Shown in pieces: positions 7,655 to 61,010 of a stretch of DNA of 64,000 nt (its first letter is position 1; the number at the start of each line of letters is the position of its first letter). A program made the translations under genes and the position numbers. The notes under the pieces were generated by a model. The model searched no databases. It saw nothing but the letters and a program-made list of their open reading frames with translations, and was not told where the DNA came from. Source of the stretch: Escherichia coli (lineage in GTDB: Bacteria; Pseudomonadota; Gammaproteobacteria; Enterobacterales; Enterobacteriaceae); assembly GCF_044324785.1 (NCBI RefSeq), contig NZ_CP172127.1, one strand, 5' to 3'.

Positions 7655-7687
7655 AAACAGGAGCCTGATGGCTCCTGTTTTTCATTG
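7655..7687 (+). terminator. intrinsic terminator downstream of alaC
   Basis: Stem CAGGAGCC (7658-7665), loop TGAT, stem GGCTCCTG (7670-7677), followed by TTTTTCATTG. Confidence 0.7.
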
Positions 7688-10922: not shown

Positions 10923-11165
10923 AGCTGACAGGCAATATATTGAGGTAAAGGATTTAACTCCCTCCAGCCGACAATTTTTTATGACCACAATACGACAGGT
11001 TGTGGTCATAAAATTATTTGGCGCTCGCGGTTCTATAAACTCGCATTTTATCTTCCTCAAAGTAACCCGCAATAATTCCGTGTCATCACAAATCATTTAT
11101 TATGTTATGCTTTATGGTACGCTTTAAAAAGCGTAATCATACCCTTACTTGTAAATCACCGGCGC

Positions 11166-17786: not shown

Positions 17787-20700
17787 TTAGTCATTTTGTT
17801 GACAGAAAACAGCAATCTCCTGGTCTAACTCTGCAATGTGTTCTTTAACAGAGTTCAGCAACTTAAGAATTTCAGGCTTGCTGTCATCTGAAACGGGCGT
17901 TATTTCTAACTGATGGCTAATATTAATCAACTTTTGCAAATTCAGGATGTTAGCCGCACCGTGGATGCGATGAATACACTGATGGAAAGTTCTGTTGTCG
18001 CCAGCTTCTAGTGCATGAAACGCAGCGGGTAGATCTTTATGCGTTTCATGCTGGAAAGTCATGAGAATCTCCTGCATCAGTTGTAGATCGTTCGCCGTAT
18101 TATTTTTCAGGGCCTCGATATCAAGGTGGCGATACTGAGGTGCAATATGCGCAACCTGGTGTAACTGACTTAAATGTGTTTTCAGTACATCCAGGGTCAA
18201 CGGTTTGAACAAACATAAGTTCATGCCGCAATTTAACCCTTTTTCACGTTCGTTAGCCTGTGCGTTGGCTGTAAGCCCCCAGATGGGTAAGGAAGAATTT
18301 TGCTCACGGAGTTTGCGAGTCAACTCAAAACCATCCATATTCGGCATATTAACGTCAGTAATAAGCAGATCATAATGTTGCATACTGACTTTGTGTAGCG
18401 CTTGCACACCATCAGTTGCTTCATCAACATCATATCCTAATAGGTTTAGCTGGCGTTTGAGTAATAGCCTGTTGGTCGGATGATCATCCGCTATTAATAT
18501 GCTCAACTTTTCAGGGAGTGTCATAGGTTGTTCTGCTTTTGCCTCGACAGTCGCCACTTGTTGGGTAATTTCTACCGGGATTGTGATCGTAAATGTCGTT
18601 CCTATGCCTGGATGACTTTCTAATGATAAATCGCCCTGCATGTTTTTAATTAATTCTTTGCAGATCATTAAGCCTAAACCAGAACCTGTTTGCTGACGAC
18701 CTGCACTTGTTTGGCTATAGCGTTTAAACAGTTGTTGTTGTTCTTCCTGCGATAATCCACTTCCAGAATCCATAATCGTCATTTTGATAACAGCGTGGTT
18801 GTCATCAATGTGACCCAGGGAGGTCGTAATTTTTACTGCCCCCTCGGTAGTAAATTTAAGAGCATTGCTCAGTAAATTAGATAAGACCTGCTTAAACGCC
18901 TGAGGGTCGATCTTAACCTGGTAATGTTCTGGAAACGTACTGCTGCAACTTAATGCGATGGATTTGCTTGCAGCAATCGCACCGAAAGAGTGACAAGTGT
19001 TCTGGACTAAAGTAGGGATGTCGACCCATTGTGGTTGAAGTTGATAGTTACCCGACTCAATTTTGTCGACATCAAGGATTTCACCAATTAAGCCGAGGAG
19101 TGATTGTCCGGTGGCGTAGGCAAGTGAAATCGCCTCCACCCGTTGCTCCTTGCTAAGACCAGAACCCGACAGAAGTTCGAGGAAGCCCATAATGGAGCTT
19201 ATTGGTGTTCTTATTTCGTGACTCATTGTTGCCAGAAACTGGCTTTTTGCGACAGTTGCATTGATCGCTTTATTTCTCTCTACTTCGAGTGCATGAATTA
19301 AATCACGCGTCTCGGTAATATCTTGCCAACCACAAATATAAACAGCATGATCGCTGGCTGGCAGATTGCATAATGTATGCCAGTGATTAATGCATCTTTT
19401 CTCGATGCCATTATCAATTTCAAATACCTGTGTGTATATTGTTCGATTTTCTTTCGTTTCTGCTGTGACTTCATGCGCATTAGAAAAAACATCTTTAAAG
19501 GGTGAGTCACTGTTTTCTAATGGTAACATTGCATTTTTGTAGTAATCCGCAGTGAAATAATGTTCAAAAGCACTATTATGACTAATGACATTACCTTGCC
19601 AGTTTACAACATAAGTTGGATTCGGTAAGGAATCCGAGAGTGCTTTTCGGAATGATATTTGGTTTTCTAAATCACCCTGAATGACTTTACGACGACGAAC
19701 TGAGCGTAACAGGTAGAATCCCCATAAAAGGCTACTGCCAACTAATAAAACGGATAATGTCGTGACAATATAAAATTGCTCGCTATAGAGGTCCCATGTG
19801 TCAATGGTCACATTGGGCATTTTAATCCATTTTTCCGTCAGGCGCAGAACTTCGCTTGGGGGAATTGCATTCAGTGCTTTATTAATAATATCCTTAAGTT
19901 CCGGTTCTCCGCGAGGAAAAGCGAACGAAAGCGATGCATTCTGAACGCCGGGAATAAGAAAATGATAAAGTTCATTAGGATAGTAATGGTCGATCATGTA
20001 ACGCGAATTTAGCTGTGTCGCGACCAGAGCATCAAGTTCACCTTCCTTGACCTTGTGAAATGCAGCACTAGCGTTATCGACTTTTATCCACTCTACCTCC
20101 GGATACATCTCTTTTAATTGCGAATGAAGCTCATAATAATATGGAATGGCAACTTTCATTCCTTTTTTTAATGTTTGTTCACTGTCAGGCGCTTTTTGCA
20201 TGACAAAAACGTAAGGCGTTGTTATGAAGGCTTCAGCAAATGAAACATTATTTTCTCGATCTTCACTATAAATAGCGGCGGGCAATATATCCCATCCACC
20301 GGGGTTAAGCTGTGTCCCCGCATGAATATTGTGTGAAACGGTGATCGGAGAAAAATTTAAACCTGTTTGCAAGGTAATAATATTAAGAATATCACCCATC
20401 ACGCCCCGAACTGAGCCAGTTTCATCTGTCATAGAATAGGGTGGCGAGTAAGGATTTTCCAGCACCTTTAAATCGGGATGCTGCTTAATCCACTGTTTTT
20501 CATGTTCAGTGAGTTCTAATGGTTTGTTCAGAAAGGCCAGGTTTCCTGTATCAAGCCAATTTTGTGATACTTCATAGCGAACTTCATTTGTTAAAGCATC
20601 AACAAACCGATTGAGTACTTCATTAAGAACGACTGAATCTTTTCTGGTTAAGAAAAAGTTATATTGACGCGGCGAGTTATAATATTTCACTACATTTAAG

Positions 20701-38724: not shown

Positions 38725-38926
38725 GAAGGTCAAAGCTATATGAATCCGCGCTGAATGGCGGAGTGTTGCTCAAAATGTAAACGCATATTGACTATACTTA
38801 CGCCATTGAGGTAAAAAACAGCGTTTCATTCGGTGAATGGATAAGGCACAATGCCGGCCACCGTTTTCTTTCTCTGGTTTCAGATGAAAGAAAACGGGCG
38901 AATCTGGTTAACAAAAGCGGTGCAAT

Positions 38927-57900: not shown

Positions 57901-59037
57901 GTGAAAATCCTTGTTGATGAAAATATGCCTTATGCCCGCGACTTATTTAGCCGTTTGGGTGAGGTGACCGCGGTTCCCGGGCGTCCAATCCCCGTCGCTC
58001 AACTGGCAGACGCGGATGCGCTGATGGTGCGTTCGGTCACGAAAGTGAATGAATCTTTGCTGGCAGGAAAACCCATTAAATTTGTTGGCACTGCCACCGC
58101 GGGGACCGACCATGTCGATGAAGCGTGGTTAAAGCAGGCGGGAATTGGTTTTTCCGCGGCACCTGGCTGTAATGCGATTGCGGTGGTGGAATATGTTTTC
58201 TCCTCACTGCTGATGCTTGCCGAACGCGATGGATTTTCACTGCACGAGCGTACCGTGGGGATCGTGGGCGTTGGTAACGTTGGTCGCCGTTTACAGGCGC
58301 GACTGGAAGCGTTAGGGATTACAACCTTGCTTTGCGATCCGCCTCGCGCCGACCGTGGGGATGAGGGGGATTTCCGCTCGCTGGATGAATTAGTTCAGCA
58401 TGCGGATATTCTGACTTTCCATACGCCACTCTTTAAAGATGGTCCGTACAAAACGCTGCATCTGGCGGATGAAAAACTGATCCGCAACCTGAAACCGGGA
58501 GCGATCCTGATTAACGCCTGCCGTGGCGCAGTCGTCGATAATACCGCCCTGCTGACCTGCCTGAACGAAGGCCAGAAGTTAAGCGTAGTGCTGGATGTCT
58601 GGGAAGGCGAACCGGAACTTAACGTGGAATTGCTGAAAAAAGTGGATATCGGCACGCCGCATATCGCAGGCTATACCCTGGAAGGTAAAGCACGCGGAAC
58701 TACGCAAGTGTTTGAAGCTTATAGCAAGTTTATTGGGCATGAACAACACGTTGCGCTGGATACGTTGCTGCCCGCGCCAGAGTTTGGCCGCATTACGCTG
58801 CATGGTCCGCTCGATCAACCGACGCTGAAAAGGCTGGTGCATTTGGTGTATGATGTGCGCCGCGATGACGCACCGCTGCGTAAAGTCGCCGGAATACCGG
58901 GTGAGTTCGATAAGCTGCGCAAAAACTATCTTGAGCGCCGTGAATGGTCATCTCTGTATGTAATTTGTGATGACGCCAGCGCGGCATCATTGCTGTGTAA
59001 ACTGGGTTTTAACGCCGTTCATCATCCGGCACGTTAA
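57901..59037 (+). CDS. pdxB: erythronate-4-phosphate dehydrogenase
   Basis: 378-aa [25 protein letters not shown]... recognised as PdxB. Confidence 0.95.
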
Positions 59038-59102
59038 TCTCTTCTTCATGCTCTCTGCTGTAATATTGGCAGGGAGCTTTGCTATTTCTGGAGTAAACCA
59101 CC

Positions 59103-60116
59103 ATGTCTGAAGGCTGGAACATTGCCGTCCTGGGCGCAACTGGCGCTGTGGGCGAAGCCCTGCTTGAAACGCTGGCTGAACGTCAGTTCCCGGTTGGGGA
59201 AATTTATGCACTGGCACGTAACGAAAGCGCAGGCGAACAACTGCGCTTTGGTGGTAAGACAATCACCGTGCAGGATGCCGCTGAATTCGACTGGACGCAG
59301 GCGCAGCTGGCGTTTTTTGTCGCAGGCAAAGAAGCTACCGCTGCCTGGGTTGAAGAAGCGACCAACTCAGGTTGCCTGGTGATCGACAGCAGCGGATTGT
59401 TTGCTCTCGAACCTGACGTACCGCTGGTGGTGCCGGAAGTAAACCCGTTTGTACTGACCGATTACCGCAACCGGAATGTCATCGCCGTACCGGACAGTCT
59501 GACCAGCCAGCTGCTGGCGGCACTGAAACCGTTAATCGATCAGGGCGGTTTGTCGCGTATCAGCGTTACCAGCCTGATTTCAGCCTCCGCCCAGGGCAAA
59601 AAAGCGGTCGATGCGTTAGCGGGGCAGAGTGCGAAATTGCTCAACGGCATTCCGATTGACGAAGAAGATTTCTTCGGGCGTCAGCTGGCGTTCAACATGC
59701 TGCCGTTACTGCTGGATAGCGAAGGTAGCGTGCGTGAAGAACGTCGTATCGTTGACGAAGTACGCAAAATCCTGCAGGACGAAGGGCTGATGATTTCGGC
59801 AAGCGTCGTCCAGGCACCGGTATTCTACGGTCATGCCCAGATGGTCAACTTTGAAGCACTGCGTCCGCTGGCAGCAGAAGAAGCGCGTGATGCGTTTGCT
59901 CAGGGCGAAGATATTGTGCTCTCTGAAGAGAACGAATTCCCGACTCAGGTGGGGGATGCTTCTGGTACGCCGCATCTTTCCGTTGGCTGCGTACGTAATG
60001 ACTACGGTATGCCGGAGCAAGTTCAGTTCTGGTCGGTGGCCGATAACGTTCGCTTTGGCGGCGCGCTGATGGCAGTAAAAATCGCCGAGAAACTGGTGCA
60101 GGAGTATCTGTACTAA
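59103..60116 (+). CDS. usg: aspartate-semialdehyde dehydrogenase paralog USG-1
   Basis: 337-aa ORF with NAD-binding GATGAVG motif; upstream partner of truA. Confidence 0.92.
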
Positions 60117-60928
60117 TGTCCGACCAGCAACAACCGCCAGTTTATAAAATTGCGCTGGGCATTGAGTACGACGGCAGTAAGTATTACGGCTGGCAACGGC
60201 AGAACGAAGTCCGCAGTGTGCAGGAGAAGCTGGAAAAGGCGCTCTCCCAGGTGGCGAACGAACCGATCACCGTCTTCTGCGCCGGGCGTACTGACGCAGG
60301 TGTACACGGCACCGGGCAGGTTGTGCATTTCGAAACGACCGCGCAGCGCAAAGACGCTGCGTGGACGTTGGGCGTAAATGCGAATTTACCTGGTGACATC
60401 GCCGTGCGTTGGGTTAAAGCTGTACCTGATGATTTTCATGCCCGATTTAGCGCCACGGCTCGCCGTTATCGCTACATCATCTACAATCATCGGCTGCGCC
60501 CGGCGGTACTGAGTAAAGGGGTAACCCATTTTTACGAACCGCTGGACGCTGAACGGATGCATCGGGCTGCGCAATGCTTGCTGGGCGAGAATGATTTCAC
60601 CTCGTTCCGTGCGGTGCAGTGCCAGTCCCGAACCCCGTGGCGCAACGTTATGCATATTAATGTCACGCGTCACGGTCCTTATGTGGTGGTAGATATCAAA
60701 GCGAATGCTTTTGTACATCATATGGTGAGGAATATTGTCGGCAGCCTGATGGAAGTCGGTGCCCACAACCAGCCGGAGAGCTGGATAGCAGAGTTGCTGG
60801 CGGCAAAGGACAGAACGCTGGCGGCAGCAACGGCAAAAGCGGAAGGGCTGTATCTGGTCGCGGTGGATTACCCTGACCGGTTTGATCTTCCAAAACCGCC
60901 AATGGGCCCGCTATTTCTGGCGGACTAA
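60116..60928 (+). CDS. truA: tRNA pseudouridine(38-40) synthase
   Basis: 270-aa ORF recognised as TruA; start overlaps the usg stop. Confidence 0.95.
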
Positions 60929-61010
60929 CAAGAATAATGCTCGGAACATTTCAGGCTGTAGCCAACGTAGTTACAGCCTGAAAGATGACGAGTACAAGGC
61001 ATAGGCTAAT

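Follow-up and report, generated by a model that had tools for sequence, protein, structure and literature searches.

The 64,000-nucleotide stretch of Escherichia coli DNA analyzed here (the window) contains the gene order pdxB-usg-truA-dedA-accD. Genes were assigned from open reading frames and from the RefSeq annotation of matching E. coli records, which are 99% identical, and both place the hairpin reported by a first-pass annotation between truA and dedA, where it had been described (Table 1). The truA-dedA spacer is 82 nt long in E. coli. No feature is annotated within it in the RefSeq records of E. coli, and a promoter scan identified no plus-strand promoter in the spacer. Upstream, usg (59103-60116) and truA share a single base at 60116, the last of the usg stop codon and the first of the truA start codon, and this tight coupling, typical of this operon, contrasts with the 82-nt gap between truA and dedA. 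Downstream, the divergence of dedA between E. coli strains is unusually high, with a mean pairwise difference of 20% at fourfold-degenerate sites compared to 6% for the adjacent truA, and the copy in the window differs from that of K-12 at 41 of 660 bases. This pattern suggests that dedA alleles are deeply diverged or imported and that a recombination boundary lies near or within the gene.

Table 1. Features of the truA-dedA spacer in the window, and ERIC matches in the same spacer of other species (positions of the latter refer to the extracted truA locus named)
Feature	Position	Strand	Remarks
truA	60116-60928	+	ORF and RefSeq annotation of matching E. coli records
truA stop codon	60926-60928	+	Element begins 8 nt 3' of the stop
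Element, probable internally deleted ERIC/IRU	60937-60996	+	60 nt; both arms kept, central 69 model positions replaced by 3 nt
Left arm (probable ERIC left terminal inverted repeat)	60937-60960	+	ATGCTCGGAACATTTCAGGCTGTA, compared to ATACTCTAAATAATTCGAGTTGCA at the left end of ERIC
Outer helix, 5' half	60938-60943	+	UGCUCG; predicted by RNA folding to pair with 60989-60994
Inner helix and loop	60949-60983	+	14 pairs, 60949-60962 with 60970-60983; 7-nt loop, 60963-60969
Right arm (probable ERIC right terminal inverted repeat)	60957-60996	+	TGTAGCCAACGTAGTTACAGCCTGAAAGATGACGAGTACA
Outer helix, 3' half	60989-60994	+	CGAGUA; predicted by RNA folding to pair with 60938-60943
dedA ribosome-binding region	60997-61013	+	AAGG at 60997-61000, directly after the element; ATG at 61011-61013
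dedA	61011-61670	+	ORF and RefSeq annotation of matching E. coli records
Serratia proteamaculans	L102, 1229-1353	+	Full-length ERIC, 88.4 bits; about 6 nt past the stop
Enterobacter sp. 10-1	L053, 2316-2438	-	Diverged full-length ERIC, 42.7 bits; 2-3 nt past the stop
Raoultella terrigena	L049, 2316-2438	-	Diverged full-length ERIC, 39.6 bits; 2-3 nt past the stop
Raoultella planticola	L038, 2316-2440	-	Diverged full-length ERIC, 25.6 bits; 2-3 nt past the stop
Klebsiella indica	L039, 2314-2433	+	Weak match of about 120 nt, 18.5 bits (E 0.08); 1 nt past the stop

The inverted repeat is composed of TTCAGGCTGTA (60950-60960), GCCAACGTAGT (60961-60971), and TACAGCCTGAA (60972-60982). Reading the sequence recovered the perfect 11-bp stem and 11-nt spacer at 60950-60982 exactly as previously described, together with a twelfth perfect pair, T60949/A60983, that extends the stem to 12 bp (60949-60983). 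In the inner helix, these 12 perfect Watson-Crick pairs are followed by a G-U and then a C-G pair. The full fold (60938-60994) is a 21-pair interrupted hairpin made up of the inner helix, one isolated pair, and a 6-pair outer helix. Its predicted energy is -32.8 kcal/mol, compared to -14.6 +/- 2.8 kcal/mol for dinucleotide shuffles (z -6.46), and none of 200 shuffles folded as stably. Pair probabilities remained between 0.98 and 1.0 when the hairpin was folded within a 276-nt mRNA context. A count of perfect hairpins in the window (stem of 11 bp or more, loop of 3-20 nt) gave eight, against a mean of 0.26 in dinucleotide shuffles; the truA-dedA hairpin is therefore not a product of chance, and it is real.

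The other seven hairpins in this count are located at 7655-7680, 10977-11013, 18013-18051, 28720-28752, 31301-31332, 33047-33075, and 38861-38897. Two of them, at 7655 (AAACAGGAGCC...GGCTCCTGTTT) and 31301 (AAAAAAGGTGAGT...ACTCACCTTTTTT), are terminator-like, with A/T runs on both sides.

The truA-dedA stem is not followed by a T-run, as the first-pass annotation had stated; its 3' flank reads AAGATGACGAGTACAAGG / AAGAUGACGAG. Lacking a U-tract, the element cannot act as an intrinsic terminator, and a terminator scan identified no terminator-like site at 60930-61010, both of which agree with the earlier view that this is not a canonical terminator. A strong GC-containing stem right after a stop codon could still be read as a terminator (intrinsic or Rho-assisted) or an attenuator at which truA transcripts stop. 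Against this, no U-tract adjoins the stem on either strand, and dedA belongs to the operon. Co-transcription of dedA in E. coli was reportedly established in classical work on the hisT operon. In Salmonella, RT-PCR shows co-transcription across the truA-dedA spacer (PMC6358828). Transcript ends at the hairpin, which had been proposed as a way to check its role, are likewise missing from the Term-seq tables of Adams et al. 2021, which cover limited growth conditions and contain no RNA 3' end in the MG1655 interval 2433xxx-2435xxx. We conclude with high confidence that the element is not a terminator, and consider termination or attenuation of truA transcripts extremely unlikely. Masking of the dedA ribosome-binding site was also considered and rejected, since the ribosome-binding region has a predicted accessibility of 0.52 when the element is present and of 0.47 once it is removed in silico, and the element does not pair with AAGG.

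The spacer was compared across 80 species of Enterobacteriaceae and Erwiniaceae, each represented by one truA locus. In about 70 of the 80 species it is 23-36 nt long (most 23-28 nt) and free of hairpins. The spacer of E. albertii is 26 nt long and differs from that of E. coli by a single 56-nt gap exactly at the hairpin. A dedA ribosome-binding stretch, ACAAGGCATAGGCAAATATG, is common to E. albertii and E. coli, and the stretch is also present in species without the element. Among the 80 loci, the 82-nt spacer with its hairpin was found only in L001, a divergent Escherichia locus labelled E. coli. Removing the element in silico leaves a spacer of ~23-24 nt, as in the relatives. These short, hairpin-free spacers indicate that the hairpin is extra DNA and not a conserved enterobacterial element. 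The proposal to look for conservation and compensatory changes across enterobacterial truA-dedA spacers thus gave a mostly negative answer, as about 70 of the 80 species, including E. albertii, do not have the hairpin.

This lack of conservation weakens the idea of a dedicated regulatory hairpin that evolved for its purpose at the truA-dedA junction, unrelated to mobile DNA. Such a hairpin would account for a stable fold far from chance expectation, for near invariance in E. coli, and for changes in L001 that preserve pairing (described below). It is difficult to reconcile with the absence of the hairpin from the spacers of E. albertii and about 70 other species, with a model of a known repeat family that explains the sequence end to end, and with the absence of a mapped RNA end from the tables of Adams et al. 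2021 and from the available part of those of Gordon et al. 2017. A purpose-evolved hairpin is consequently very unlikely in our judgment.

The repeat family in question is ERIC (also IRU or RU-1), a 127-bp palindromic miniature mobile repeat of Enterobacterales. The right half of the element, which we took to resemble the end of an ERIC, was the first clue to its identity. The family was reportedly described by Sharples & Lloyd in 1990 and Hulton et al. in 1991, and shorter, internally deleted copies are said to have been described by Hulton in 1991, Sharp & Leach in 1996, and Wilson & Sharp in 2006. A 44-mer from the ERIC core was checked against E. coli genomes and had 100% matches at a median of 10 places per genome, showing a multi-copy and dispersed family. 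ERIC copies for comparison were taken from three E. coli loci (pgk-fbaA, cusC-cusF, and ybhI-ybhJ), and further copies came from Proteus, two Citrobacter, Yersinia, Pantoea, Klebsiella, and one E. coli plasmid. In a MAFFT alignment the spacer is collinear with these copies except that it lacks the ERIC middle. The right arm is GTAGCCAACGTAGTTACAGCCTGAAAGATGACGAGTACA compared to CGCAGCCAACGCATCTGCAACTTGAAAGACGACGAGTATA in an ERIC copy, and the left arm of L001 keeps CTCTAAAAATTTC, nearer to the ERIC sequence CTCTAAATAATTC.

A covariance model was constructed from eight ERIC copies trimmed to the element together with their consensus structure. In the 64-kb window it produced a single match, at 60937-60996 on the plus strand (35.3 bits, E 5.5e-7), which runs end to end through model positions 1-126 with 69 central positions replaced by 3 nt. 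As a control, the model was applied to 298 kb of truA loci and produced five matches, all within truA-dedA spacers, indicating that it gives no stray matches. An nhmmer profile of eight ERIC copies, with the window excluded, matched 60957-61008 (22.5 bits, E 2.3e-6), the top match apart from true ERICs. Local alignment with one E. coli ERIC was unconvincing, with a score of 22 that 29 of 2000 shuffles and 14 of 1776 window segments also attained, and a profile of the three E. coli ERICs only was not significant (E 21). The match reached significance only once copies from seven genera were used, so recognition requires diversity at the level of the family; core-less remnants of this kind escape searches with E. 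coli copies alone and call for a family-level structural model. No match to a 22-mer from the ERIC core was identified in the window at up to three mismatches, which indicates a deleted derivative and not a canonical copy.

Structure points to the same family. The consensus fold of eight ERICs (RNAalifold) has compensatory changes in 15 of 38 pairs and contains an outer 6-pair helix (ATACTC/GAGTAT) and an 11-pair inner helix of TTCGAGTTGCA with TGCAACTTGAA. The 11-bp stem of the spacer is this inner helix, corresponding to alignment columns 14-24 paired with 104-114, and substitutions in it are matched on both arms. ERICs are mobile elements with inverted-repeat ends and TA at their termini (PMC3184786, PMC2229807). 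In the canonical register, the dinucleotides flanking the element are AA (60936-60937) and CA (60995-60996), not TA. Two TA dinucleotides occur nearby, at 60935-60936 and 60993-60994; they are out of register with canonical copies and were set aside as evidence for a target-site duplication. An Rfam scan of 59000-63000 returned nothing relevant; the sole overlap, mir-1271 on the minus strand, scored 17.9 bits (E 2.8), below its gathering score of 80.5, and was discarded as noise.

The element and ERICs have in common both terminal arms, the outer helix, the 11-bp inner helix, and a long RNA hairpin, and the location of the element, intergenic, inside an operon, and beside a stop codon, is typical of ERICs. 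It differs from them in being 60 nt long instead of 127, in lacking the conserved core with the ERIC-PCR primer sites (ERIC1R/ERIC2), in having a perfect Watson-Crick inner helix where the family consensus has a G-U pair and mismatches, and in that the truA-dedA variant is single copy in each E. coli genome. The element is filed here as an internally deleted ERIC derivative, whose arms, fold, and location fit the family while its length and core do not. That it derives from an ERIC is very probable, and the fuller reading, a folded, internally deleted ERIC (IRU, RU-1) remnant in the truA-dedA spacer, is likely. The protein-binding palindrome offered earlier as one possibility found no support, because the ERIC terminal inverted repeats fully explain the palindrome: the dyad symmetry that would favor an operator is the symmetry of the ERIC arms. 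Moreover, the site lies inside an operon and downstream of a stop codon, is absent in relatives with the same genes, and has half-sites 11 nt apart that form a stable cruciform or hairpin, as opposed to the 4-8-nt spacing that we regard as typical. We give an operator practically no credence.

As an internally deleted derivative, the element may have originated from an ERIC copy that inserted beside the truA stop codon in the Escherichia lineage, or possibly earlier. A palindrome-associated deletion, either preceding or following the insertion, would have removed the middle of that copy, perhaps by way of short GCAGCCA-like repeats present in both arms, and the shortened copy would then have been fixed in E. 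coli. On timing, the E. coli copy either is younger than the divergence from E. albertii or stems from an older insertion that eroded unequally among lineages.

A search with a 72-nt query identified the element in 5425 of 5426 complete E. coli genomes, at one place in each. Identity was at least 99% in 3895 genomes, 95-99% in 1519, and 90-95% in 11. BLAST of E. coli genomes and plasmids identified no second copy, and the plasmid matches proved to be misfiled E. coli chromosomes. In E. coli HB37 (NZ_CP053080.1; L099, 1738-1797), an ISEcp1-family insertion starts right after the element (...GACGAGTAC|CTAGATTC...) and splits dedA from truA.

Variation was examined in seven sequences: the window, five E. 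coli genomes spanning the identity range, and L001, whose truA is 5% different. Across the six typical strains, the only variable position is 60982 (A, T, or G), one pair above the base of the helix. The element of L001 differs at five positions, with every pair preserved. A G-C pair becomes U-A through G60943U plus C60989A, A60982G converts U-A to U-G, and the changes at 60944 and 60947 fall in internal loops. The 60943-60989 pair is G-C in typical E. coli and U-A in L001, in place of a U/C mismatch in the ERIC consensus, which implies that the two gained a pair at this position through different single substitutions. Changes that preserve structure, the covariation sought by the first-pass annotation, are therefore present within Escherichia and across the ERIC family, though not across enterobacterial spacers. 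Among the six strains, 1 of 60 sites in the element is segregating compared to 16 of 134 fourfold-degenerate sites in truA (Fisher p 0.025), and differences from L001 number 5 of 60 and 31 of 134, respectively (p 0.016). For a sample of seven sequences, the low variation of the element and the changes that preserve its pairs are hints of structural constraint. Variation below that of synonymous sites is common in intergenic DNA anyway. Template-directed correction within a DNA palindrome could likewise yield changes that preserve pairing.

Whether such constraint reflects function bears on a neutral account, in which the ERIC remnant is tolerated without a selected effect on expression and its uniformity in E. 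coli follows from recent shared ancestry together with linkage and palindrome-templated repair. A spacer of 23-28 nt suffices for most relatives, and elsewhere the same spacer accepts different ERIC copies and, in HB37, even an ISEcp1 insertion. Adams et al. 2021 recorded no 3' ends here, and access to the dedA ribosome-binding site is barely changed by the element. The account fits less well with variation below that of fourfold-degenerate sites, with the preservation of structure by all five L001 changes, and with two independent changes that create the same pair. We put the chances of a neutral relic at about even, and a selected RNA function of the element at possible but doubtful.

Any such function would be expected to act on RNA. 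The predicted duplex is about two helical turns long, with 21 pairs in three coaxial segments separated by two small internal loops. Stable REP hairpins between cistrons are known barriers to 3' exonucleases, for example in malE-malF. The proposed mode of action of the truA-dedA element resembles that of REP/BIME sequences in that a stable, repeat-derived hairpin without a U-tract lies between cistrons; the sequence families are unrelated, and stabilization by the truA-dedA element is a proposal. From the operon structure, the element would be transcribed within a pdxB-usg-truA-dedA mRNA in the plus orientation of the ERIC model. Its RNA would fold into the stable hairpin of ~21 pairs, which would neither terminate transcription nor mask the dedA ribosome-binding site. 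By analogy, the hairpin could block 3' exonucleases and shield the upstream pdxB-usg-truA segment; alternatively, and also by analogy, it could be the target of a double-strand or RNase E type cut. By either route of decay, truA and dedA mRNA levels would become uncoupled.

One precedent comes from Yersinia, where co-transcribed ERICs alter the stability of the upstream transcript in an orientation-dependent manner, as refolding uncovers an RNase E site (PMC3184786, PMC2229807, citing De Gregorio et al. 2005). In the left arm of ERIC, the A/U-rich internal loop is UAAAUAAU; it is GGAACAU in typical E. coli, which means that a Yersinia-type RNase E site is not obviously kept, and UAAAAAU is kept in L001. 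On this ERIC analogy, the RNA-level role in processing or stability that the first-pass annotation preferred to a terminator is still the most plausible function, and the most likely effect of the element, if it has one, would be on mRNA decay as a co-transcribed hairpin.

A second precedent is found in the Correia/NEMIS repeats of Neisseria, whose co-transcribed copies form long hairpins that RNase III cuts (PMC3184786). They resemble the element as miniature mobile repeats with these properties, and differ in that they belong to another family and other organisms and that RNase III cleavage is known for the Neisseria repeats. By the same analogy, RNase III might cut the ~21-pair duplex and separate the truA and dedA parts of the transcript. 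A helix of about two turns and the citation of NEMIS-class repeats as RNase III substrates (PMC3184786) would suit this, while the interruption of the duplex by two internal loops and the absence of truA and dedA from the available part of the RNase III tables of Gordon et al. 2017 speak against it. An RNase III processing site at this position is improbable.

ERICs were also identified in the truA-dedA spacers of other species (Table 1). The copy in S. proteamaculans lies in the same orientation and at a similar distance from the truA stop codon as the E. coli element, and its arm motifs, TTTCAAGCTGCAGCC and TTTGAAAGGCGACGGGTA, are closely like those of the E. coli element. It differs in being full length, in a spacer of 207 nt, and in belonging to another family (Yersiniaceae), and is most likely an independent insertion. 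The K. indica spacer probably also holds a copy from the ERIC family. Given the differences in site, orientation, and sequence, several independent insertions are the simplest reading of the ERIC copies in this spacer. At the position of the E. coli element, Salmonella enterica (arizonae, L011, 2324-2346; Infantis, L101, about 1224-1245) and Citrobacter sp. R56 (L008, 2324-2346) have a GC hairpin of 5-6 pairs. By eye, the ends of this mini-hairpin are ERIC-like (ATACCC...GGGTA; GAATATGACGGGGA compared to GAAGTATGACGGGTA), and between the two Salmonella sequences the stem is conserved and the loop differs. The ERIC model scored the Salmonella and R56 mini-hairpins at noise level, 5.7-6.3 bits (E 2-3).

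Repeated arrival of ERICs in one spacer raises the idea that the eroded copy in E. coli was co-opted as a selected intercistronic RNA hairpin that sets the truA:dedA expression ratio, and that across Enterobacterales the junction repeatedly captures or retains ERICs because uncoupling the two genes is advantageous. This would concern E. coli, Serratia, Raoultella, and Enterobacter sp. 10-1, with K. indica a probable further case and Salmonella, through a smaller remnant, a tentative one. We regard this as unlikely. Together with the structure-preserving changes in Escherichia, the repeated ERICs make the spacer a small test case for the effect of remnants on neighboring cistrons. What is new here is limited to the recognition of one more degenerate member of the ERIC family and of a spacer that took up such repeats several times; beyond annotation, where a hairpin in an E. 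coli operon spacer is now labelled as a deleted ERIC copy, the finding matters little. The first-pass annotation was right to set a terminator aside, its RNA-level role remains plausible, and what it missed is the origin of the hairpin in a truncated ERIC/IRU, to which the MAFFT alignment, the nhmmer profile, and the covariance model all point.

In Enterobacter sp. JUb54 (L042, 2313-2412) the spacer is 99 nt long, and the ERIC model finds no match in it. Its start resembles that of the longer Raoultella-type insert (TATACGCTTTATCCTTCGGACTGCC), and it may contain another internally deleted ERIC copy.
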